This document shows positions 8,316 through 59,227 of a stretch of DNA of 64,000 nt, in pieces; position 1 is the first letter of the stretch; every line of letters begins with the position of its first letter. The position numbers were made by a program, and so were the translations under genes. The notes under the pieces were generated by a model. It was not told the origin of the DNA and ran no database searches. It worked only from the letters and a program-made list of their open reading frames with translations. Source of the DNA: Methanobacteriota archaeon (lineage in GTDB: Archaea > Thermoplasmatota > Poseidoniia > Poseidoniales > Thalassarchaeaceae); the NCBI GenBank assembly GCA_011523055.1, contig WTHQ01000037.1:3210-67209 (forward strand). The letters run 5' to 3'.

Positions 8316-8833
8316 TCATAGAGGTCGCCGAAGAGCTTCACTGCTTTGGAAATTTTCGGTGCCACTACGAGGGAGCAGTATGGCTGATTCGGATTTCTCT
8401 CGAAGTAGTCATGATGATAATCCTCTGCGGGCCAGAATGCTTTGGCAGGCTCGACTTCAGTGGCAATTGGTGAACCATAGGTAGGTTGAATCTGTGAAAT
8501 TACCTGATTTATCGTTGTTTTTTGGCTTTCATCCGAGTAGAAAATACACGTTCTATATTGGGGCCCGACATCATTTCCCTGCCTGTTCACTTGAGTTGGA
8601 TCGTGAAGAGCAAAAAACACACGGAGGATTTTGGTCAGATCAATTACAGAGGGATCGAAAACCACCTTTACAACTTCGGCGTGCCCGGTCCTTTTTCCAC
8701 AGACTTGCTCGTATGTTGGATTTGCAACATCCCCCCCCGAATAGCCAGGAGTCGCTCTTGTAACCCCCCTGAGACCAGACATTCCGCCCTCGATGCACCA
8801 GAAGCAACCGCCCCCCAGAATAATTTCATTCAT
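8312..8833 (-). CDS. msrA: Peptide methionine sulfoxide reductase MsrA
   Basis: GGGCFWCIEG active-site motif and PTYEQVC..TGHAEVV. The ORF-track start at 8911 adds 26 atypical residues and overlaps guaB. The internal Met (MNEIILGGGCFWC) at 8833 gives a canonical N-terminus. Confidence 0.85.
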   Translation of the reverse strand: MNEIILGGGCFWCIEGGMSGLRGVTRATPGYSGGDVANPTYEQVCGKRTGHAEVVKVVFDPSVIDLTKILRVFFALHDPTQVNRQGNDVGPQYRTCIFYSDESQKTTINQVISQIQPTYGSPIATEVEPAKAFWPAEDYHHDYFERNPNQPYCSLVVAPKISKAVKLFGDLYE

Positions 8834-8885: not shown

Positions 8886-10343
8886 CTATCTTCTGTAGTT
8901 CGGAGCTTCACGGGTGATCTCGACGTCGTGTACGTGAGACTCTGATAGACCCGCGTTGGTGATCTTCACAAATGAGCAATTTTCCCTCATGGAGCTGATC
9001 GTCGAGTTCCCTGTGTAGCCCATTGCGGACCTCAATCCTCCTAGAAGCTGGTAGAGAACATCGTCCACAGGCCCCCTTGCTGGAACTCTTCCTTCGATAC
9101 CCTCCGGGACGTACTTTTGGGTGTCCCCCTGCTCGGATTGGAAATATCTGTCATGGGCGCCGTCTGACATGGCACCAACTGACCCCATTCCACGGTAGAC
9201 CTTGTACGACCTGCCTTGGTAGAGAATGGTCTGACCCGGTGCCTCATTTGTCCCTGCAAGAAGCGACCCAATCATGACGCAGTTGGCACCCGCTGCTATT
9301 GCTTTGGCAATGTCCCCACTAAATTTGATCCCACCATCAGCAATGACGGGTATGTCCCGCTCTCTGCATTCCTCAACTGCGTTGATTACCGCAGTCATCT
9401 GAGGGACCCCGACGCCTGACACGATGCGTGTTGTACAGATCGAGCCCGGGCCTATGCCCACCTTTATGCCATCTGCACCAGCGTCAATCAGAGCCTTTGC
9501 AGCGGCTCCTGTCGCCACATTTCCAGCAATGATATCGACATTATTACCCAGTAATTTCTTGATTTTCGCAACGGTTTGTATTACCCCGGACGAGTGCCCG
9601 TGAGCAGTATCGACGACAATGGCATCGGCCCCAGCTTCATGGAGGGACAAGGCTCTTTCTACCCCCTTGGAGCCAGTGCCAGTAGCAGCTGCGACTCGAA
9701 GCCTCCCCCTGTCGTCCTTGCAAGAATCTGGGTGATCGAGATTCCTCTCAATGTCTCTAACGGTCATCAAGCCGACGCATTTCTCACCATCCACAACGAG
9801 GAGTTTCTCTATTCGGTGCTTGTGCATCAGCCTCATGGCCTCATCTGGGTCGACGTCTAATGGCACAGTGACCAGATCCCTTGTCATGAGAGAGCCGACT
9901 TTCTCGGAGTGGTCTTGGACGAATCTGATGTCCCGATTTGTGATAATTCCAACTAACTTATTTTTCTCGAGGACTGGTAAGCCAGAGAATCCATACTCAT
10001 TCTTTAGGTTCAACAGATCTCCGATCGAGGTTTCTGGAGTAGTTGTAACCGGGTCGATTACCATGCCGGCCTCGAACCTCTTCACTCTGGAGACATTCTC
10101 GCATTGCCTTTCAACCGGCATGTTTCGATGAATTACCCCTATTCCACCGGCTTGGGCCAGGGCTATCGCCATCTCTGATTCTGTGACAGTGTCCATCGCT
10201 GCGGAGATGATGGGAATATTCAATCCGATATTCTTGCTGAGGCGTGACGATAATTGGACTTCGGCAGGCAATACTGAGCTACTTGCAGGCAATAGTAGGA
10301 CGTCGTCGAAGGTCAGGGCCTCGGTAATCGTGGGAGCTGCCAT
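8886..10343 (-). CDS. guaB: Inosine-5'-monophosphate dehydrogenase
   Basis: TIM-barrel IMPDH with an inserted CBS pair. Catalytic loop [20 protein letters not shown] and [13 protein letters not shown] motifs. 485 aa. Confidence 0.95.
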
Positions 10344-10450
10344 TGCGGATCTCCAATGCCGGACCTAAATCAACCATTCGTGTAGTTGACATCGATAACT
10401 CACACCACGATAGGCATTCATTAACTTTGAATTCAAGAAACTGGCTGGTT

Positions 10451-11095
10451 ATGACCGTCCAGCCAGCATCGCCCAACTTGTTTTGGCTTAGGGGCACCTC
10501 TATATTCATGTCGTTGATGTTCCTTTTTTCCCTTGCTACAATTGCAAGCTCAGTCGTTACGCCCGTGATCGTGGAAACCTATTGGCCGGGGGAGTGGAGC
10601 GAAATAGCTGGGGATTACCCTGAGAACGGAACTACAAACGAACAGGATGAGTGGGTTGAGGGCAAGCGGTTCTGGAATGAGTCAGTGGATTATTGGGAAG
10701 CCTTGGTTGATTCGGGGCTATTCGAGATCTCTGCAGGATTTGGGTTCATCATGGCCTTGATTTCAGCTGCGTCTGTACCGGTTCTCTGGTCTGGTGATCG
10801 GAATCTCGGGCTCAGATTATGCCTCTCTTGGGTCGTTGTCCTCATGATCAGCCAGATACTGACAACGATGCTCTACTATGAAGTGGGATTCATCCCGGAA
10901 TATTCAGAGTTTGAGCTCAATGGGGAGCTCAAATGGATGAACTATGTTGAGAAGGTTGGGTTGACTTTCTCTATGGCCCAGATATTGATTTGCAATTCTT
11001 GTCTGTTTGCTTGTATTTTTGTTGTTGCAGCGCGCTCAAAGCCCCCGAAGAATGGTTTTGACTTGGAATCGGGATTCCACCGTTCAGAGGGATAA
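10451..11095 (+). CDS. Hypothetical polytopic membrane protein
   Basis: The ORF-track ORF 10343..11095 starts on the same nucleotide as divergent guaB, which leaves no promoter space. An internal Met at 10451 (MTVQPASPNLFW) or 10508 is more plausible. Four or five hydrophobic helices and no known motif. Confidence 0.45.
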   Translation: MTVQPASPNLFWLRGTSIFMSLMFLFSLATIASSVVTPVIVETYWPGEWSEIAGDYPENGTTNEQDEWVEGKRFWNESVDYWEALVDSGLFEISAGFGFIMALISAASVPVLWSGDRNLGLRLCLSWVVVLMISQILTTMLYYEVGFIPEYSEFELNGELKWMNYVEKVGLTFSMAQILICNSCLFACIFVVAARSKPPKNGFDLESGFHRSEG

Positions 11096-11121
11096 AAAGC
11101 CTCCAGTATCTGGTAATCTAC

Positions 11122-11457
11122 ATGCCCTCACTAGTAGATGGAATGCACGTGGTGAACACAGAGACCATTCCTGGATTCGTAATCAAGGACCAATTGGGTG
11201 TTGTGTCAGGATCCACAGTACGAGCAAAAAACGTAGTTCGAGACATCTCCCAGATGCTGAAGAACATAGTTGGCGGGGAACTGCATCAATACACGAATTT
11301 GTTGAATGAGTCTCGTAATGAGGCTTTTTCGAGAATGTTGGAGGATGCGAAGGCACGTGGAGCAAATGGGGTTGTGAATCTCAGGTTTGCCACCTCTGCT
11401 GTATCCCCCGGAGCAGCGGAGCTTTTCTGCTATGGAACAGCAGTCCTCGTAGAGTAG
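11122..11457 (+). CDS. YbjQ/UPF0145 (DUF74) family protein
   Basis: 111 aa. Family pattern ...GFVIKDQLGVVSGSTVRAKNVVRDI....IVGGE...Y..LL.ESR.EA...LEDAKARGANGVVNLRF.T....GAAELFCYGTAV matches the YbjQ fold. Confidence 0.75.
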   Translation: MPSLVDGMHVVNTETIPGFVIKDQLGVVSGSTVRAKNVVRDISQMLKNIVGGELHQYTNLLNESRNEAFSRMLEDAKARGANGVVNLRFATSAVSPGAAELFCYGTAVLVE

Positions 11458-11470
11458 TTGGAGTGTTGGA

Positions 11471-12019
11471 TTGATGGAAGTCAGCCCCTATCTCCTGCTT
11501 CTCATACCCTTGATTCCACTAATCCTATGGGTGGCGTTTTGGACTATTGCCTATCCAGTGATGTTTCTTTATGGTGCGATAACTTCATCCAGCAGCAAGA
11601 GGCGATGGCGAAAAGACGTCCTAAGAAGGGAAAGAGGCACTATGGAGAAGGTAGGGCGGGATACATTGTCAATGGACAAGATCAGGATTCCCTTGGGTGC
11701 TACCGAATCAGAGGTGATCTGGGCTAGCATTGTCATCGGACCAAGCCACTGGCAACAACTAATCGGCTCATTGTACAACATAATAGGAGGCTCAGTCGAC
11801 GTATACAGGGACATCATCGCAATCGGCAGGTCAGAGGTTCTCCAGAGACTGAGGGAAATCGCCGAGGAGAAGGGATTTGACAATGTCGTGGCTGTTAGGC
11901 TGGACACCAGCATGATTGGTACCTTTCGATCTCAGGGCAAGGGATCGAAGGGGATTGAGATCTTTGCCTATGGAACTGGCGTGAAAACTGAGGTTCCAAG
12001 CTCGTTTATTGTACAATAG
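11471..12019 (+). CDS. Membrane-anchored YbjQ/UPF0145 paralog (N-terminal TM helix plus DUF74 domain)
   Basis: N-terminus LLLLIPLIPLILWVAFWTIAYPVMFLYGAI is a TM helix. The C-terminal half repeats YbjQ hallmarks (IIGGSVDVY, GFDNVVAVRLDTS, FAYGTGVK). Starts 13 nt after the first paralog. Confidence 0.7.
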   Translation: MMEVSPYLLLLIPLIPLILWVAFWTIAYPVMFLYGAITSSSSKRRWRKDVLRRERGTMEKVGRDTLSMDKIRIPLGATESEVIWASIVIGPSHWQQLIGSLYNIIGGSVDVYRDIIAIGRSEVLQRLREIAEEKGFDNVVAVRLDTSMIGTFRSQGKGSKGIEIFAYGTGVKTEVPSSFIVQ

Positions 12020-50719: not shown

Positions 50720-51046
50720 TCAGAGAGAGAGGACCACCAGTGCCAATGCACATACGACAACGCCGATTAAGACCATGCTCTGGAGTGTTATCTCTGATTC
50801 TTGATTCAAATCTCTTCCCTCTATCATGTGCGAGACGACGGATTCAATCTCTTCATGAGCTGTCTCTCGATTTTCCCCTCCATCAATCTCAGAAGAAGAC
50901 GGATCTTCTTCGACGATCTTTGGATCTTGGTTCTGGAGAATTCTATCGATAAGATCGGCTTTCTTTCCAGAGACTGGAAGCGCGAGATTCGAAAGTAAAA
51001 TCTTCAACTCAGCCACAGTCATGGCCTCAAGGTCTTCTCTTCGCAT
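50720..51046 (-). CDS. SAP-domain protein with C-terminal TM anchor
   Basis: MTVAELKILLSNLALPVSGKKADLIDRIL fits the SAP helix-extended-helix consensus (L..L.V.EL...L....L...G.K..LI.RL). An acidic linker follows, then the C-terminal helix LIGVVVCALALVVLSL. Confidence 0.6.
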   Translation of the reverse strand: MRREDLEAMTVAELKILLSNLALPVSGKKADLIDRILQNQDPKIVEEDPSSSEIDGGENRETAHEEIESVVSHMIEGRDLNQESEITLQSMVLIGVVVCALALVVLSL

Positions 51047-52091: not shown

Positions 52092-52420
52092 GATTCTCCG
52101 CACCTGTAATTGTGTTTGAACGCAATGGAAGGAGGAGGGTTCTTGCACCCCACTCGCCAAGGATCGCCCATGAGTTCATCGCAGCCTCTACCAAAACCAA
52201 AATTGCGTGGTGGAAAGAGGTCGAGCCCCTGGTTGGAGAGGGTTGTGCTTTCCACGTACCTGGTTGGTTTCGTCATAATGGGCACCCGGCTACAGGAATG
52301 GCTTCCGTCAAATCTCGATAGTTACTCCTGTCTGATCTACCCTGTATTGGCGGTGATCTCCCTGTTCGCTGCGGAGTTTACGGTGCGTTGGGCTGAGAGG
52401 ATTTTAGGAATACGATAGCC

Positions 52421-53662
52421 CTAACCCTCATTGTCAGAGGCAATATTCTTCTGGACTCCTCTGAATAACGACTCGAACCAGCCCAATACGAATTGCCATG
52501 GCACTAGGTACCTGGCCATGCTGAAGAAGAGAAGAAACAGGCCGGCAGAAATCACTTTTCCATAGGTCATCTGTAATTCCAATGAGTCATTTACCTGCTG
52601 ACTCCATTGATTTGGTTGGAACTCGGAAATGACCGTAATCAAAATCTCATCGAAGTCCAATGCGACTGCAGTTAGTAAGGTTGCGAGTGAAACAACGCCG
52701 AATAGTTGGAACAGGTGAGTGTTCAATACTGTCTGAAACATCCTGATGTGTTCAGGGTCTGTGCGGGCGCTCTCCGGCAACATGGCCACATACTCAAACA
52801 AGCGTATGCACATGTGAGAGGATTCAAAGAATAGGAAAAGTACTACTGAGATTGTAATCAATTCAAATGCGAGGGGAGAAACCAGCCCCCCGAACATGGT
52901 GGATTCTCCGATTTGGGCTGGTAGTGGATTCAGCCCGATGCCTTGCACAGAGTCAAGAACAGCCTCGAATGTTAGAAGAGCATGGAATATTAGGAACATA
53001 ACGATGTAACTCATTGTTGCCACAATCGCCCTCATTGATAGGTTCCAAATTCCAATCAGGCCGAACAATACGGGGGCGAAAACAACTCCCATGACGATGA
53101 ATTCCGAAATCATCTGCATTGGAAGCAGGAGTCTGTCACCGTGGTTGAATATCTCTAGATCCTGGCCAAAGGGGACGTAGACTTGGCGGTAGGTGACCAT
53201 CCCAGTTATCCATTCAAACAAGAATGGCCCTAGACCAAAAATTAGGGCAGTAGAGTAAATTCCAATTCTCAACCTTCGACGGAGTTTTGAGTCCCGAGTG
53301 GAAGCGATAGCATGAGCCCCTGTCAAAAGCAAGCAGAATACAGAAGGGAAGAGCAAGGAGGTGCTTCCGACTTGGCCGACTCCGGTAATGACATCTGGCA
53401 GTATGGCGTCCCTTTGGAATGACTGTTCGACATACGCGATACCGCGTGTGTGCTCAAATGCTGGACACCAATAGCTCTCGCCGTCAGCCTCATCAATGAA
53501 GTCTTGGTCACACTCCCCATACTTCGAGGTCATGGTCAAAATCAACATGGCCAAGGAGGCAGTTGCAACGACTTGCAACGCTAGAATCTGCCATCGTGTC
53601 CTGAGGGACCTCAACCGAAGGGTTTTGCCGTTGTTGTGCCCCTCTTCGCTCATTTTCGACAC
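52421..53662 (-). CDS. Hypothetical polytopic membrane protein (about 10 TM), last gene of the cdc48/DUF58 operon
   Basis: ORF-track ORF directly abutting the DUF58 stop (53662/53663). Multiple hydrophobic helices. No motif recognised. Confidence 0.6.
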   Translation of the reverse strand: MSKMSEEGHNNGKTLRLRSLRTRWQILALQVVATASLAMLILTMTSKYGECDQDFIDEADGESYWCPAFEHTRGIAYVEQSFQRDAILPDVITGVGQVGSTSLLFPSVFCLLLTGAHAIASTRDSKLRRRLRIGIYSTALIFGLGPFLFEWITGMVTYRQVYVPFGQDLEIFNHGDRLLLPMQMISEFIVMGVVFAPVLFGLIGIWNLSMRAIVATMSYIVMFLIFHALLTFEAVLDSVQGIGLNPLPAQIGESTMFGGLVSPLAFELITISVVLFLFFESSHMCIRLFEYVAMLPESARTDPEHIRMFQTVLNTHLFQLFGVVSLATLLTAVALDFDEILITVISEFQPNQWSQQVNDSLELQMTYGKVISAGLFLLFFSMARYLVPWQFVLGWFESLFRGVQKNIASDNEG

Positions 53663-54925
53663 CTACCCCTTTTTGACCTGTAATAACGCCTGAGCAAGAT
53701 CAATGTCTGGAACCCAATCTATAACATTGGCACCATAGCCGTTCAACGACATGAGCCTATTTTGCCGCTCCATCTTGAGGACCTCGTAGGCCATCCTTGG
53801 GATTCGACTCACAAGTCTCTCCAAATCGACTGAATTCGGAGAGAGCACGTAAACCGTGTGGCCGTGGCTCGACAGCGCTCTTATCGCAGGCAATGCGGTA
53901 CCATCGCCTTCAAGGCTACTAACGACGAAAACAGGGGATCCTCTGTTCATCCTGGGTATGAGCGCATTAGTAACTGCCTGAATAGGCATCGAGCCCCCGG
54001 CTGACACGCCGGCTAGCAAACTGAGAATCTTGTATTGCTGTTTGTCACCGGCCTCTGCAGGGAGGTGGTCCATTCTCCTACCATAGGTTGTGAGAGAGAC
54101 CGCATCCCGCCTTCTGATGAAGTGATTGGAAATTGATGCCGTTGCAACAGCCCCCATCTCGAGAGGGTTCTTCAGCACGGTACCGATCCTTGATATGTCC
54201 CTCGTGTCGAATAGGATGTGCACGTCTGTGACTGCATCCCTGACCTTCTCATTGACCATCAGATCTCCTGTTCTCGCAAATGCTTTCCAATTTATTGACC
54301 TGAATGAGTCTCCGGGCATGTACTCTCTCAATGAGTAAAACTCTGTTCCTTGGCCGGGGGTCCTCAGTGTAGTTGCTCCTGTGTACATCTTTGGGACATT
54401 GGAGCGGAGCAAAGCATCCTCGATGTCCCTGACTTGGGGGAATACAATTACGTCACTTCTCTTGTCCTCTACCCCTTCGTCGGTGAAGAGCCCGAAAACG
54501 TCCCTGTATCTCAGCGAAGTGGGTCCGATAGAGAAATGGCCTCGCAATGGGCATCTCACGGTGTATCTCAACACAGTTGATTGTCCAGGGCCCAAGTTGG
54601 CCCTGATCATGTTTATCCCTCTTCGGATTTTCATTTCATGGGGTACGTTGTCATAAATGTCCAATGTCTGTGTTCTTCTCCTTGACCGGTTGCTTATCGT
54701 GAGAGTGACAGTTATGTCGTCGCCCTTGTAGACATTCTCTTCGGACAACTCCCTCTCAACTGCCAGATTTGGATAGCCGCTCACCCAACTTGCCATGACG
54801 AGCAAGGAAACCATCAGCATTCCGAGAATCATCAGGTGGAAATGACTTACCATCATTCCAATCAGGATAAGCGAGATGCCCCCGACAAGCGTCATTGTTG
54901 CCTTCCTTGTCCACATTGTATTCAC
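53663..54925 (-). CDS. DUF58-family protein (vWA-like module that normally partners MoxR AAA ATPases), N-terminal double TM
   Basis: Core EFYSLREYMPGDSFRSINWKAFARTGDLMVNEKVRD matches the DUF58 signature (Y.pGD..R.IdWk..AR). Two N-terminal TM helices. Overlaps the upstream gene by 4 nt. Confidence 0.75.
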   Translation of the reverse strand: MNTMWTRKATMTLVGGISLILIGMMVSHFHLMILGMLMVSLLVMASWVSGYPNLAVERELSEENVYKGDDITVTLTISNRSRRRTQTLDIYDNVPHEMKIRRGINMIRANLGPGQSTVLRYTVRCPLRGHFSIGPTSLRYRDVFGLFTDEGVEDKRSDVIVFPQVRDIEDALLRSNVPKMYTGATTLRTPGQGTEFYSLREYMPGDSFRSINWKAFARTGDLMVNEKVRDAVTDVHILFDTRDISRIGTVLKNPLEMGAVATASISNHFIRRRDAVSLTTYGRRMDHLPAEAGDKQQYKILSLLAGVSAGGSMPIQAVTNALIPRMNRGSPVFVVSSLEGDGTALPAIRALSSHGHTVYVLSPNSVDLERLVSRIPRMAYEVLKMERQNRLMSLNGYGANVIDWVPDIDLAQALLQVKKG

Positions 54926-56586
54926 AGGTCCATCAAATCTTCATCAGGCTCATCTTCGTCTGGGCCCCACTCTCGCATTCTTTTGACAACTCCAACCAAC
55001 TCTTGTGTTTTGTACCTTCTATTGTCGTATATGAAGCGAAGTAGAACTTGATCATCAACGAGGTCCTTGAGCTCCTCCGAGGACAGGGAGTCGAATTCCT
55101 CCCTAGTCATCGTGTTTTTGCTCCTTACCCTAGAAAGGAAGACCTGTCGAATTTTGTCTGGGTGTTGGTAGAACTCATACCTCTTTGCGTCACCAAAACC
55201 ATAGTAGATTATCCTGAAGACGTGTCGCCAATCCTCGGGATCCTCCTTTCTGATCAGTACCACCTCCAACATCATGAAGAGCGCCAGAAAGAGGATGAGC
55301 ATTGCCATCCAATCATTGGTGAAATACACTAGGAAGTAGTATGCTAGATTGTAGGTATCCGAAAGGGGATTGGTTTGTTGGTGTCGACTTTCATCAAAGA
55401 TGACTATTGCATTCTCGCTCGGATTCAATGAGTCATTACCAACCAACAGGGCATCGGCAATGATATCCAGTGCCCAAAACCTATTGTCATTCTCAGGAAC
55501 ATTAGATCCGTCGATCTTCGAGGATGAGTAAATGGCATTGATCAGGAGTGATCCATCTGATGCGATGTGCACTTGACCAGAGGATGGCTCAGCGCATAAT
55601 CTGGACGAGCATATTCTGGCATAGACGGCGAATGGCCCCTGCTCGTCTCCTTGGATCCCTGCCGCCTCGAATGCGGGCGTGAGGTCGCCATCGTCGTTTG
55701 AATCCAAGTAGGAGTCTAGTGTGGATGTAATGACAGGGTATCGATTTTCAGCGGGGGAAAACAAAGACTCCTTGTCGAAAGCAGATGGTTTGCTCGTGAG
55801 GAGGTCATAGCTTTCGGAGAAGTCATATGTTTTCTGCTCAGAGTCCCACCGATGTCCACACAAGCCAAATGAGTCATCAATTGGCGTGAAGCCTACGTTC
55901 TTTTGATCTGGGTCTGGGTCGATCAGATCGAGTATCAGATCACCGTCTCTATCTGCGAGGCATGGGTGGTAAATCGAGGTTGATCCTGAAGTTTGAGTTA
56001 GGTTGTAGGCATTGGTAACGTTCGTCCAGACATAGTTGTAATCCAGCTCCCTAGCCCACGCCTCCCCGTCATACAATTGATGATTGGAGAAGAGAATGTT
56101 GTATTCTTGGGCGAGGGCGGATGAGTATCCGAAGTCATCCATCAACAGCAGAGTACCTCCTGCTTGGACGTACTCAACGATTGCTTCAATCTCCGAGCCA
56201 GTGTATCCATCAGTGTCAGACAGTTCGACAATGGAGTCATCATCTGTAAATCGAGGCAATGAGATTGTATCACGTTCAACGCCAGATACCACAAATATTG
56301 TTTCCTCTGGGTTGTCGATCTCTGATAGGAGTAGCGGGCTCGATACCATTGCCGTGGTCTCAACCCCCATTGAGTTAATTTCCGATCTGAAATCGCCGAG
56401 GTCGTCCCAGTCGTCCCCATAGGCAGATTGTTGCGTTTTTCCATCGACTATGTATGTTGATGCAATGAAGGCAACCAAGAGGGTCAGAACAGACCAAAAA
56501 GAGAATTTGAGGAGTCTCTGTCGATTGGCTTGGTTGAAGATCTTTGATGTCCGTCTCGGCCCACTCATCATCGGTCCACCCCCCAC
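54922..56586 (-). CDS. Membrane protein with large extracytoplasmic domain flanked by N- and C-terminal TM helices plus an about 110 aa cytoplasmic tail (DUF4350-like architecture)
   Basis: N-terminal helix FSFWSVLTLLVAFIASTYIV. GTLLLMDDFG motif. C-terminal helix WMAMLILFLALFMMLEVVLI. This placement beside DUF58 is typical of DUF4350 proteins in Bat/MoxR-type operons. Confidence 0.55.
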   Translation of the reverse strand: MGGGPMMSGPRRTSKIFNQANRQRLLKFSFWSVLTLLVAFIASTYIVDGKTQQSAYGDDWDDLGDFRSEINSMGVETTAMVSSPLLLSEIDNPEETIFVVSGVERDTISLPRFTDDDSIVELSDTDGYTGSEIEAIVEYVQAGGTLLLMDDFGYSSALAQEYNILFSNHQLYDGEAWARELDYNYVWTNVTNAYNLTQTSGSTSIYHPCLADRDGDLILDLIDPDPDQKNVGFTPIDDSFGLCGHRWDSEQKTYDFSESYDLLTSKPSAFDKESLFSPAENRYPVITSTLDSYLDSNDDGDLTPAFEAAGIQGDEQGPFAVYARICSSRLCAEPSSGQVHIASDGSLLINAIYSSSKIDGSNVPENDNRFWALDIIADALLVGNDSLNPSENAIVIFDESRHQQTNPLSDTYNLAYYFLVYFTNDWMAMLILFLALFMMLEVVLIRKEDPEDWRHVFRIIYYGFGDAKRYEFYQHPDKIRQVFLSRVRSKNTMTREEFDSLSSEELKDLVDDQVLLRFIYDNRRYKTQELVGVVKRMREWGPDEDEPDEDLMDL

Positions 56587-56644
56587 GACAGGCGGAAGCT
56601 AAATCCGACTCTATAAGACGGTTATCCGACTTTGTTAGCCTGGT

Positions 56645-56893
56645 CTATCTCAAACGGATTACGTTTGAGAGTTCAAAAACCTCATTCTTTGGCACCTGCA
56701 AAAGTCCATCCACTGATGGCCAAGGAAGCAACGCGGGGTCGAGTTCCTCACTGATCATTACCAGTAGTGACTCCACCTCTCCCGTCCTTGTGTTGATCAG
56801 AAGGTCGGCAACGTGCCCTAGTGTGTCCCCTGCACTGTCCAGGATTGGCCGGTTTAGGATTTCGCGGCCAAAACCAGAAGCCATGATAATCAC
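56645..56893 (-). CDS. PRC-barrel domain protein (82 aa)
   Basis: [29 protein letters not shown] fits the PRC-barrel core. Overlaps the cdc48 stop by 4 nt. Confidence 0.6.
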
Positions 56894-59112
56894 ACTGACT
56901 CGATTCCCTGAAGGGAGTTGTTGCTCCTCTTGACTGATTCAAGGCCGCTGACGAGAGTCTCTTCCATCTTGGAGTAGTACTCTAGCATGTCTTTATTCAC
57001 TGTGGGCCTCACTCTGTTCACTGCTTCTTCGAAATGGCTCTTTGACACTGTCTTCTTCCCTGCCCTCATTGCGATCAATGCTGCTTCTCTGCAGATTGCC
57101 TCGATGTCTGCTCCGGTGTAATTCTCGAGATCATCTGCGATGTCATCAAGCTTGAAGCGTCCCAGCGGCATTTCTGAGGAGTGGATTTTCAGGATCTCCA
57201 ACCTAGACTGTCTGTCGGGGGGCGGAACATGAAGAACTCTCTCAAATCTCCCGCTCCTAAGCAGGGCTGGGTCGATCATCTCAGGCCTGTTTGTCGCTGC
57301 GACGACGATGACACCCTCCATGGACTCGACTCCATCCATGCTGGATAGGATTTGGTTGACCACCCTGTTCATAACGTCCGACCCTTCTCCAGTCATCGAT
57401 CTCCGAACCCCGGCAATCGACTCAAACTCATCAAGGAAAATAATCGATGGGGCTGCTTGCTTGGCCTTTTTGAAGACCTCTCGTACAGCCCTCTCTGACT
57501 CCCCCACCCACTTCGAAATCATCTCGGGCCCTTTAATCGATATGAAGTTCGCTTTGGCTTCATTGGCGATCGCCTTTGCGATCAGTGTTTTCCCAGTGCC
57601 CGGGGCCCCGAACAACACGATTCCACGTGGGGGTTTTATTCCGAAGTGATCGAAAGTCTCGGGTTGGTTCAGGGGCCACTCAATGCTCTCTTTCAGGCGC
57701 TCCTTGATTTCATTCAAGCCACCTACGTCATCCCAAGAGGCTGTTGGAACTTCGACATATATCTCTCTTAGAGCGCTTGGCTCGATCTCCTTTATGGCCT
57801 CTCGAAAATCTGCCATCTTGACCTCCATCTTCTCCAACACCTCGGCTGGTATCTCGTCCTGATCCAGATCAATCTCGGGCAGATATCTTCTGAGTGCCTT
57901 CATCGCCGATTCCCTCACTAGCGCTGAGATGTCAGCGCCCACGAATCCATATGAGTTTTCCAAAAGCCATTCCATCTCGAAATCATCGCTTATCGGCATA
58001 CCTCGGGTGTGTATGTCGATGATCTCCGATCGACCGTTCTTGTCAGGGACTCCTATCTCGAGCTCCCTGTCGAATCGGCCGGGCCTTCTCAGCGCTGGAT
58101 CGATGGCGTCCCTTCTGTTGGTTGCGCCGATCACCACGACATTGTCCCTGCCCTGCATCCCATCCAACAAGGTAAGAAGTTGGGCTACGACCCGTCTTTC
58201 GACTTCTCCGCTAACGTCTTCTCTCTTTGGAGCGATGGAGTCCAGCTCATCGATGAAGATTATCGCTGGGGCGTTGGATGTGGCCTCATCGAAGATCTCG
58301 CGGAGTTGCTTCTCACTCTCTCCATAGTACTTGGAGATGATCTCGGGGCCGTTTATTGACGTGAAGTGTGCCTGGGTCTCAGCGGCAACAGCCTTGGCAA
58401 TCAGGGTCTTCCCGGTTCCAGGTGGTCCGTGGAGAAGAACCCCTCTGGGTGGATCGATGCCCAGTCTTCGGAAGAGGATAGGGTGCTTGAGAGGGAGTTC
58501 GATCATCTCACGAACTTTCTGGAGTTGATCACCGAGTCCACCAATATCCTCATAGGAAATTGATTGAATGATACTCTCGTCCTCTTCATCAACGGGGTCC
58601 TCTTTGATCACGATCTCTGTTGAGGGCAATACCTGTACGATTCCCTTTGGCTTCGTGCTGACTATCTGGAATGGCAGTGCCTCGGCAAATAGAGTCATCC
58701 CGGGTATGAAGATTCTATCTCCTGACACCACTGGCCTCTTGTTGAGGCCTCTCCTAGCAAAGCCCTCGATTCCGGGGCCGAATCTAACCTTCTGTTGTTT
58801 TGCCATGACCGGTGATAGGACTAATTTCTCGCACTCCGTCACCTCGACCTTCCTGATGCTAACTCTGTCTCCTAACGATACTGATGCATTTTTCCTGATG
58901 ATCCCGTCGATTCGGATTACCCCTAAATTAGCGTCCTCCGGCCTGCATCGCCAAACAATCGCGGCTGTTGACTTCTCCCCGTTTATCTCGATCACATCGC
59001 CTGGCTTGAGATTGAGTTCATTATCGAACGGCACCCTCGCCCTGCCATGTCCGACGTCACTCGGTATGGCTTTGGCTACACGTAGTGTGAGTTCTCCTTC
59101 CCCGTCTGTCAT
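56890..59112 (-). CDS. cdc48: Cdc48/VCP-like AAA+ ATPase (N domain plus D1 and D2 AAA modules)
   Basis: Two AAA cassettes, [15 protein letters not shown]...IIFIDELD and [15 protein letters not shown]...IIFLDEFE. Cdc48 N-domain LTLRVAKA...GDVIEI. The start is set at MTDGEGELT. The ORF-track start is 59160. Confidence 0.95.
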
Positions 59113-59227
59113 GGCCGTTCCTCGGAGTATCTGTTGGACTCCGCCTCCCTTAAACCCCAATACATTAAGTTCGGGAATCCAACGTTATTGTGTGTGAAAT
59201 CTAATCTTCGATCTTAGCAGCATTCAT

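Follow-up and report, generated by a model that had tools for sequence, protein, structure and literature searches.

Does the Cdc48 ATPase encoded beside a DUF58 membrane module in an archaeon of Marine Group IIb (Thalassarchaeaceae) work with that module, or do two separate units simply lie next to each other? The question goes back to an earlier note on the window, the whole 64-kb stretch of DNA analysed here, which proposed that Cdc48 had been recruited to the DUF58 assembly. All five minus-strand ORFs on which the proposal was built were found in place (Table 1), and the domains assigned to them proved correct. Their order is Cdc48, PRC-barrel protein (79 aa), bitopic protein of the DUF4350 family, DUF58, and polytopic membrane protein. 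The packing by 4-nt overlaps or zero spacing described for them holds for the longest possible ORFs but not with the ATG starts used in relatives, which give gaps of 5 nt (Cdc48–PRC), 5 nt (DUF4350–DUF58), and 9 nt (DUF58–polytopic protein). The fourth junction, between the PRC-barrel and DUF4350 genes, had been omitted and measures 58 nt (GTG start) or 73 nt (ATG start). Across 76 species this spacer has a median of 89 nt (range 53–209 nt), compared with medians of 9 nt for Cdc48–PRC and of −1 and 11 nt for the other two junctions, and because it is wide relative to the other junctions, the five genes are not uniformly packed. We read the locus, with a probability of roughly 0.65, as two adjacent co-directional units, the position of cdc48 being most likely a lineage-specific juxtaposition.

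Table 1. Genes and sequence elements of the locus, with positions in the window
Feature	Position	Strand	Basis
TATA-like box GGGGTTTAAG upstream of cdc48	59149..59158	-	Window sequence and recurrence in the family
cdc48, double-ring AAA+ ATPase, 740 aa from ATG	56890..59112	-	Longest ORF to 59160
PRC-barrel gene, 79 aa from ATG (82 aa from GTG at 56893)	56645..56884	-	5 nt past cdc48 stop
73-nt spacer, PRC to DUF4350	56572..56644	-	Conserved TATA-like box and Shine-Dalgarno-like run
TATA-like box GTCTTAT in spacer	56613-56619	-	Motif kept across the family
Shine-Dalgarno-like run GGGGGGTGG in spacer	56576-56584	-	Sequence inspection
DUF4350-family bitopic membrane protein, 549 aa	54922..56571	-	Homology and TM segments
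DUF58 protein, 417 aa: TM hairpin, Ig-like beta-sandwich, vWA-like alpha/beta domain	53663..54916	-	PF01882 and AlphaFold2 model
Polytopic membrane protein, 410 aa from ATG	52421..53653	-	Conserved last gene of DUF58 operon

The ATPase is a canonical Cdc48, matching TIGR01243 with 983 bits (cut-off 803) and containing the Pfam domains CDC48_N and CDC48_2, two AAA and two AAA_lid_3 domains, and the P-loops GPPGTGKT and GAPGTGKT. It is 83–98% identical across the Thalassarchaeaceae and ends in ...GIESV, with no HbYX motif at this C terminus. The ATG at 59112 is favored as its true start because the upstream TATA-like box falls inside the longest ORF, which begins with the TTG at 59160. A GAGG Shine-Dalgarno-like run lies between the box and this ATG, and GGGTTTAA(C/G) occurs at the same site in most of the Thalassarchaeaceae loci displayed.

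The small protein encoded directly downstream matches PF05239 (32.9 bits against a cut-off of 21.2), and the PRC family profile matches PDB entries 8qzo and 8onw ("PRC-barrel domain-containing protein") and 1pm3 (MTH1895). Its pairing with cdc48 is already described in archaea and is not new: according to the available text of Zhao et al. (bioRxiv 10.1101/2023.03.28.534520), many archaeal PRC-barrel genes adjoin Cdc48 genes. The window resembles the neighborhoods of that text in having a small stand-alone PRC-barrel gene directly beside a gene for a Cdc48-family ATPase; it differs in its DUF58 and DUF4350 neighbors, which the same text does not mention. Three cdc48 loci on haloarchaeal plasmids did not show the pairing. 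The small PRC-barrel protein probably associates with Cdc48.

Downstream of this pair, the spacer carries a motif resembling the box upstream of cdc48. Of the 76 loci (69 distinct spacers), 73 have GTC[TA]TA[AT] 22–47 nt past the PRC stop codon, against a background of 2.5% of 120-nt windows. Judging from these signals, the spacer probably holds an internal promoter as well as a ribosome-binding site, both serving the three membrane genes. Read-through from cdc48 into them, or co-transcription, may occur, as all the genes are on one strand and no oligo-T terminator was seen in the spacer.

As for the membrane genes themselves, profile searches placed the DUF58 protein well above the PF01882 cut-off (62.5 vs. 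23.4 bits). Its AlphaFold2 model (pLDDT 90.3) gave Foldseek matches to TRAP-beta and complement MG domains for the beta-sandwich and to the Rpn10 vWA, MDN1 MIDAS, and CLCA1 VWA domains for the alpha/beta domain, and prediction places its soluble domains in the cytoplasm. The MIDAS motif DxSxS is replaced by D-x-R throughout this DUF58 subfamily, and the protein retains all the subfamily-invariant residues. The DUF4350 protein scored 22.2 bits with PF14258, under the Pfam gathering score of 30.4, with IFT52_GIFT as a weak match; the assignment is backed by full-length homology to the Pfam-matched DUF4350 protein of locus L087 (tblastn E 1.6e-29), and a 541-aa protein of L091 is also homologous (E 2e-33). 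Its layout comprises an N-terminal TM segment, an acidic outside domain of ∼370 aa (GldG/GIFT-like), a second TM segment, and a cytoplasmic tail of ∼118 aa. In relatives, DUF4350::DUF58 fusion proteins link the two.

The polytopic protein had no Pfam or NCBIfam match. Its C-terminal S-L-E-L-Q-M-T-Y-G is an instance of the motif S-x-E-[LVI]-x-[SM]-x-x-G common to it and loci L085–L092, and hhalign aligned its last 116 columns with the ∼310–323-aa trailing proteins of MoxR-type operons (probability 89%, E 2e-6). The topology first proposed for the three proteins was roughly borne out for the double N-terminal hydrophobic helices of DUF58 and for the bitopic protein; for the last protein, Kyte-Doolittle analysis gave seven strong hydrophobic segments (seven or more overall), where 10 TM segments had been proposed.

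These homologies lead to an operon whose usual form in Thermoplasmatota is (TGase/giant DUF4129 surface protein)–DUF4350–MoxR–DUF58–polytopic TM protein. In L085–L088 and L090, MoxR (AAA_3) sits between DUF4350 and DUF58, directly upstream of the latter; it was directly upstream of DUF58 in four of the 10 sampled contexts and in 63 of the 72 related metagenome loci that could be assessed. The DUF4350, DUF58, and polytopic proteins of the window are homologous to those of this operon and share their order, tight spacing, and predicted topology. However, the window module lacks MoxR and the upstream DUF4129/TGase (or 320-aa) genes, its DUF58 is only 36–40% identical, and its polytopic protein is ∼90 aa longer. 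Also, the MoxR-type operon of Marine Group II follows CoxS/L/M-like genes, while the module of the window follows cdc48–PRC. From this comparison of genes and their order, DUF4350–DUF58–polytopic TM is a MoxR-less derivative of the Thermoplasmatota MoxR operon.

More distant systems share parts of this gene set. The Bat/BatI aerotolerance-type operons (MoxR, DUF58, vWA BatA/B, TPR; PMC5700661) also include a DUF58 with a vWA-like fold, classically beside MoxR, but the window module has no MoxR, BatA/B vWA, or TPR genes, and its DUF58 belongs to another subfamily with a degenerate MIDAS. The bifidobacterial PFNA cluster (pkb2, fn3, aaa-atp = MoxR, duf58, tgm; PMC8430577) resembles the full-length Thermoplasmatota operon behind the window module in combining DUF58, a large surface protein, transglutaminase, and MoxR; it differs in being bacterial and in having a Ser/Thr kinase, MoxR, and no described DUF4350 or polytopic partner.

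That Cdc48 is the only ATPase accompanying the module was confirmed, as tblastn with three MoxR queries gave no match in the operon or anywhere in the 64-kb window. The module may still need MoxR, with moxR having moved outside the window to act in trans. Such a supply would easily explain why MoxR-less operon variants are common, and the retention of every invariant residue by DUF58 is in line with it. On the other hand, five module-bearing contigs of 1.0–1.54 Mb were missing both from an apparently exhaustive list of MoxR-type DUF58 operons and from the best 120 MoxR clusters, although these clusters were filled with near relatives of the query and a moxR elsewhere in the genome may have escaped them. 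Together with the lack of a MoxR match in the 64 kb, the findings on these contigs make MoxR acting in trans an unlikely explanation.

With MoxR and the surface-protein genes upstream both lost, the three membrane genes could also be the decaying remains of the MoxR operon, with no function left. The selection data in effect refute this: 76 species keep the ORFs intact, and, with synonymous sites saturated, pN/pS values of 0.012–0.14 show purifying selection on all five genes, strong on the three membrane genes. Under that same limit, the values are 0.012 for cdc48, the most conserved gene in the region, 0.023 for DUF58, 0.05 for DUF4350, and 0.12 for the polytopic protein. Those of DUF58 and DUF4350 lie below both neighboring genes, aldehyde dehydrogenase (0.07) and TtuA (0.13), and that of the polytopic protein lies between the two.

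A further explanation is that Cdc48, using the PRC-barrel protein as its adaptor, displaced MoxR and now remodels or extracts the DUF58/DUF4350 assembly, the five genes forming one operon. MoxR is indeed gone from the position upstream of DUF58 where relatives have it, all 76 species have Cdc48–PRC immediately before the module on the same strand, large contigs of the lineage lack a MoxR-type DUF58 operon, the spacer has no terminator-like T-run, and the predicted cytoplasmic location of the DUF58 soluble domains would bring them within reach of Cdc48. Yet MoxR-less versions of the module occur in other lineages (L089, L091, L092, L163, L177, L178, and nine of the 72 metagenome loci), and in none of these at least six sampled contexts and nine loci was Cdc48 or PRC present within 10 kb. 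Neither gave a tblastn match in the 88 loci L085–L172 (1.04 Mb), and the gene calls for L177 and L178 include neither (0/90 loci overall). Like the window module, these variants have the polytopic TM gene after DUF58, either as three-gene DUF4350–DUF58–TM operons (L091, L163) or as DUF4350::DUF58 fusion operons (L089, L177, L178), the latter keeping giant DUF4129/CARDB/Ig surface proteins that the window module lacks. In a rough NJ tree of DUF58, the MoxR-less lineages stand apart from each other and from that of the window, amid MoxR-containing clades; on this basis, MoxR has been lost between DUF4350 and DUF58 in other lineages too.

The gene arrangement is kept in 76 of the 76 complete Thalassarchaeaceae loci, but the adjacency of Cdc48 and module was seen in this family only, and the unrelated flanking genes aldehyde dehydrogenase and TtuA are just as collinear there, so the conserved order adds no independent support. 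The pN/pS of cdc48 is as expected of a general housekeeping unfoldase. With the Cdc48–PRC pair described independently of DUF58, and with the conserved TATA-like box and Shine-Dalgarno-like run in the spacer, the recruitment originally proposed is not supported, and displacement of MoxR by Cdc48 is improbable.

Some observations sit less easily with a division into two units. The adjacency is invariant within the family, and Cdc48–PRC fills the slot taken upstream of DUF4350 in relatives by the DUF4129/TGase or 320-aa genes. The five module-bearing contigs above 1 Mb have no MoxR-type DUF58 operon, and the search brought up no obvious MoxR partner in trans, so another ATPase may be involved. 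The shared strand and the spacer free of an oligo-T terminator count in the same direction.

In the two-unit reading, the first unit would consist of cdc48 and its tightly coupled PRC-barrel gene, and the second of the DUF4350, DUF58, and polytopic TM genes, probably with their own promoter in the 73-nt spacer. The three membrane proteins would form one complex, with the GldG/GIFT-like ectodomain of DUF4350 facing the cell surface and its cytoplasmic tail contacting the Ig-like and vWA-like domains that DUF58, held by its TM hairpin, would expose to the cytoplasm. The polytopic protein would be the core within the membrane. In operons of the usual form, MoxR would remodel its vWA-like partner using ATP; in the lineage of the window and in the other MoxR-less lineages, the core would run without a dedicated ATPase gene. 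The MoxR-less variant at this locus is genuine and conserved; the operon it derives from is poorly understood, and the gene pair beside it is already known. Because the full-length and fusion-type operons place this machinery beside giant Ig/CARDB/DUF4129 surface proteins and transglutaminase, it likely has a role in the assembly, anchoring, or maintenance of cell-envelope proteins.

Five minus-strand open reading frames occupy positions 52421-59160 of the window and encode, in transcriptional order, Cdc48, a PRC-barrel protein, a DUF4350-like protein, a DUF58 protein and a polytopic transmembrane (TM) protein. The earlier note had described all five as tightly packed. With the ATG starts used by relatives, this holds for three junctions (5 nt for cdc48-PRC, 5 nt for DUF4350-DUF58 and 9 nt for DUF58-TM), but not for the PRC-DUF4350 junction, a gap of 73 nt that the note had omitted. 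Across 76 Thalassarchaeaceae species, the median gaps at the three close junctions are 9, -1 and 11 nt, respectively, and that between PRC and DUF4350 is 89 nt (range 53–209). Two small genes were also seen nearby. One, convergent with the end of the polytopic gene, encodes two hydrophobic segments and is weakly conserved among relatives (27–50%), being called as a 93-aa gene in family loci L001-L004. The other was found only in genus-level relatives of the window (L005-L015) and combines a SAP DNA-binding domain at its N-terminus (PF02037, E 5e-12) with a hydrophobic anchor at its C-terminus, to our knowledge an unusual pairing for an archaeon.

Features of the gene cluster and its surroundings, in window positions. 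The five genes of the cluster start at the ATG used by relatives; pN/pS is against the nearest species (locus L005) and gives upper bounds, as synonymous sites are saturated (pS ~0.75) and dN/dS proper is not computable.
Feature	Position	Strand	Length (aa)	pN/pS
cdc48	56890-59112	minus	740	0.012
Cdc48 tail with repeated motif	56890-56990	minus		
PRC-barrel	56645-56884	minus	79	0.14
DUF4350	54922-56571	minus	549	0.05
DUF58	53663-54916	minus	417	0.023
Polytopic TM	52421-53653	minus	410	0.12
ORF with two hydrophobic segments	52110-52418	plus	102	
SAP-domain protein	50720-51046	minus	108	
Aldehyde dehydrogenase (neighbour)				0.07
TtuA (neighbour)				0.13

The DUF58 assignment was upheld by profile search (PF01882, 62.5 bits against a cut-off of 23.4), and the AlphaFold2 model (pLDDT 90.3) contains both a vWA-like alpha/beta fold and the predicted double N-terminal TM, as a hairpin at residues 7–48. 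An Ig-like beta-sandwich (54–162) and a disordered linker (177–195) precede the alpha/beta domain (198–420). By Foldseek, the sandwich resembles TRAP-beta and complement MG domains, and the alpha/beta domain the Rpn10 vWA, the MDN1 MIDAS domain and the CLCA1 VWA. The canonical DxSxS MIDAS motif is absent from the window DUF58, which has D240-T-R242-D-I-S instead, with D240 and R242 kept at ≥90% among 50 members of the subfamily, whether or not they are linked to MoxR. Of 166 positions conserved in MoxR-linked DUF58 proteins, 75 differ in that of the window, from which no conclusion is drawn because the comparison is confounded by phylogeny, the MoxR-containing set being dominated by one clade. 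A basic N-terminus followed by two TM helices predicts a cytoplasmic location for the soluble domains, on the side of the membrane where the MoxR of the usual operon acts. In two MoxR-linked relatives (L159 and L161, locus coordinates 10001-11506), a gap of ~265 nt divides the DUF58 match (10001-10288 and 10553-11506); it corresponds to an insertion of ~90 aa around the beta-sandwich, in a DUF58 that is typical in other respects.

The DUF4350 protein scored below the family cut-off (PF14258, 22.2 bits against 30.4), but full-length homology argues for the assignment: it aligns from end to end (E 1.6e-29) with the DUF4350 protein of locus L087, which carries an unmarked PF14258 match, and also with its counterpart in L091 (E 2e-33). 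The relative occupying the same position in L163 passes the cut-off (42.1 bits), as do DUF4350::DUF58 fusion proteins, of which the 50%-identity library holds about fifteen. As described in the earlier note, the protein has a large outside domain; this is acidic, flanked by one TM segment at either end, and gives weak GIFT/GldG-type matches, while conservation with MoxR-type relatives is highest in the predicted cytoplasmic tail. The polytopic protein has no match in Pfam or NCBIfam. Its C-terminal SLELQMTYG fits the pattern S-x-E-[LVI]-x-[SM]-x-x-G common to the trailing polytopic proteins of the operon type, and hhalign aligns the window protein to these across the final 116 columns with 89% probability (E 2e-6). 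Its single-sequence structure model was unusable (pLDDT 48).

Operons of MoxR with DUF58/vWA proteins are widespread in bacteria and archaea. Searching 50%-identity representatives for DUF58 gave 17,131 relatives, and the closest clades other than that of the window show 30–40% identity. In records named Thalassarchaeaceae, loci L085 and L086 (DUF58 40% identical to that of the window) encode a 320-aa exported protein, DUF4350, MoxR (AAA_3), DUF58 and a 313-aa polytopic protein; the same order occurs on a 1.19-Mb contig (L090), whose DUF58 is 76% identical to that of L085. Locus L087 (36%) contains transglutaminase (TGase), DUF4129, DUF4350, MoxR, DUF58 and a 321-aa polytopic protein, and L088, from Thermoplasmata (38%), has DUF4129, DUF4350, MoxR, DUF58 and two polytopic proteins. 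A metagenome scan yielded 80 further loci, 72 with enough upstream sequence; MoxR lies directly upstream of DUF58 in 63, usually preceded by homologues of DUF4350, DUF4129 and TGase, and in nine DUF4350 is directly upstream, with no MoxR. Three MoxR queries found nothing in the 64-kb window, so that the module is indeed MoxR-less, as first read, while its relatives carry MoxR. Queries for DUF4129 and TGase also found nothing there, and the gene for the 320-aa exported protein is absent from the window. Since its members are homologous, the module corresponds to the MoxR-type operon stripped of MoxR and of the surface-protein genes upstream. It is thus a variant of an already known, poorly understood operon type, and it is conserved across the whole, ecologically abundant family.

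MoxR-less versions arose in several other places within the DUF58 subfamily: in L091 (541-aa DUF4350-like protein, DUF58 and 566-aa TM protein), L092 (DUF58 and 477-aa TM protein), L163 (DUF4350, DUF58 and 325-aa protein, adjoining Hdr-like genes) and the fusion-type operons L089, L177 and L178. These lineages are scattered among MoxR-containing clades in a rough NJ tree, which carries no support values. The fusion proteins (700–758 aa; P0173, P0192, P0200, P0222, P0230, P0236 and others, besides those of the three loci) form a clade found in other Thermoplasmatota. Upstream, the operons encode an HTH regulator and a 2100–2200-aa DUF4129 protein, and downstream 900–3600-aa CARDB/Ig/fn3 proteins; MoxR is absent within 10 kb.

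A stand-alone moxR elsewhere in the genome could act on the module in trans. The MoxR homologues among the matches listed belong to other Marine Group II lineages, in clusters that share 86–94% identity with the query. The DUF58 of MoxR-type Marine Group II operons (~95 clusters at ≥71% identity, apparently exhaustive) lies on contigs of 3.00, 1.93 and 0.48 Mb and smaller, and none of the five 1.01–1.54-Mb contigs with a window-type DUF58 is among them. One 148,909-bp contig present in both the MoxR and the MoxR-type DUF58 lists validated the comparison. As the contig sets do not overlap, a given genome appears to carry only one of the two operon types. We consider a separate moxR acting in trans unlikely. 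The Marine Group II MoxR itself (L085, L086 and L090; L085:8792-9961) is 86–94% identical across Poseidoniaceae- and Thalassarchaeaceae-named records, much more conserved than its operon partners, and its operon invariably comes after genes for CoxS/L/M-like molybdenum hydroxylases. Two typical Marine Group II archaeal loci were deposited as Planctomycetaceae (L065, PBOU01000193.1) and Acidiferrobacter (L068, NZKZ01000065.1), and two MoxR proteins likewise bear bacterial names, P0309 that of Gammaproteobacteria and P0408 that of Pseudomonadales; all are probably mis-binned contigs in public MAGs.

Upstream of the module, Cdc48 proved to be the canonical double-cassette enzyme, with a full-length match to TIGR01243 (982.8 bits, cut-off 802.65), the domains CDC48_N (PF02359), CDC48_2 (PF02933) and two AAA (PF00004), and both P-loops visible in the translation. 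The HbYX proteasome-docking motif is absent from its C-terminus, which ends in QGIESV, with no penultimate Tyr. Orthologues keep GIES[VA] at this end, and all 76 (L001-L084) keep the repeated motif SGLESV[KR]R-x(6-8)-GIES[VA] in the tail; such conservation of the extreme C-terminus suggests a different docking partner. The PRC-barrel assignment was likewise confirmed, as a single domain of ~80 aa (PF05239, 32.9 bits, cut-off 21.2). The family profile matches the PRC-barrel proteins of PDB entries 8qzo and 8onw (E 9e-6 and 3e-5), and also 1pm3, matches that place the protein among the stand-alone archaeal PRC-barrel proteins. CdpB cell-division proteins of this kind bind SepF and localise to the division site; neither sepF nor ftsZ was seen adjoining the PRC gene. 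No PRC gene adjoined any of three haloarchaeal plasmid cdc48 paralogues, nor did cdc48 adjoin the one PRC match, and this collection is uninformative on pairing. According to one preprint, many archaeal PRC-barrel genes adjoin Cdc48 genes (Zhao et al., bioRxiv 10.1101/2023.03.28.534520), and Cdc48-PRC is thus a unit in its own right.

The spacer after PRC, predicted to bear a promoter, contrasts with the 5–9-nt coupling of cdc48 and PRC. A GTC[TA]TA[AT] box is found 22–47 nt past the PRC stop codon in 73 of the 76 loci (69 distinct spacers), against a background of 2.5% of 120-nt windows, and is followed by a GGTGG/GGAGG run just ahead of the DUF4350 ATG. A similar GGGTTTAA(C/G) box, then GAGG, lies upstream of cdc48. 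Box and run probably serve as an archaeal TATA box and a Shine-Dalgarno sequence, i.e., an internal promoter. No oligo-T terminator is present in the spacer, so read-through from cdc48-PRC could still occur. Scans for sigma-70 promoters and intrinsic terminators, models not applicable to archaea, gave counts near those of shuffled sequence. In most genera, though not in that of the window, a conserved perfect hairpin, GTTCCGTAGGAAC, also lies in the spacer, directly before the GGTGG/GGAGG run (L017, L026-L064 and others; ~8330-8365 in locus coordinates), which may be a 5'-UTR regulatory element.

The earlier note held that Cdc48 had been recruited to the DUF58 assembly, an argument from adjacency for which we obtained no independent support and which several observations oppose. 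Its stronger form, in which Cdc48 has functionally displaced MoxR for the module, draws on the common strand of the cdc48-PRC and module genes, the missing MoxR and an adjacency invariant in 76 of 76 complete loci among the matches listed. However, a profile search of genome contigs with the DUF58 alignment returned, among the matches listed, close relatives only (67–97% identity), all collinear, and the flanking aldehyde dehydrogenase (upstream) and TtuA (downstream) are just as invariant; the synteny is therefore mere family-wide collinearity. At more distant loci the co-occurrence did not hold: tblastn found neither Cdc48 nor PRC in the 88 loci L085-L172 (1.04 Mb), no such gene was called in L177 or L178, and all six MoxR-less relatives named above lack both. 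The pairing reported in archaea as such, with its close spacing ahead of the promoter-like spacer, also speaks against displacement, as does the position of Cdc48 as the most constrained gene of the region, which, with its full-length family-model match, is expected of a general-purpose copy. We therefore favour, with a probability of about 65%, two adjacent units, Cdc48-PRC beside a MoxR-less module. Displacement of MoxR by Cdc48 seems improbable, and its most specific version, in which Cdc48 with PRC as adaptor took over the MoxR role for the DUF58/DUF4350 complex in crown Thalassarchaeaceae, as an AAA+ class displacement in situ, is slightly more doubtful still. Judged from substitution patterns, the MoxR-less module is clearly functional.

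No experimental study of the DUF58 subfamily was found in the literature searched. Of the systems described, those closest to the module are the bifidobacterial PFNA cluster (pkb2, fn3, MoxR, duf58, tgm; PMC8430577) and Bat-type operons (MoxR, DUF58, vWA proteins, TPR; PMC5700661), but the window module lacks the MoxR adjacency that defines both. A known anti-phage defence system was rejected, as no PADLOC model matched the non-ATPase proteins and Cdc48 alone gave generic AAA matches. Given the transglutaminase and giant DUF4129/Ig/CARDB surface proteins of the full-length and fusion-type operons, the core complex would most likely serve in the assembly, anchoring or upkeep of cell-envelope proteins.

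These results define a Thermoplasmatota operon subfamily in which DUF58 and a polytopic membrane protein form the constant core, joined in most cases by DUF4350, and identify Marine Group IIb, abundant in the ocean, as a lineage where a core lacking MoxR stands behind cdc48-PRC. Repeated loss of MoxR from a core that remains under strong selection shows that the ATPase is dispensable or replaceable. If Cdc48 does serve the module, this would be the first link of archaeal Cdc48 to a vWA-type membrane client, a new client class for the enzyme and a clue to the role of its PRC-barrel partners. If not, as seems more likely, these are ordinary neighbouring units, and the case is a caution against inferring function from family-level synteny.
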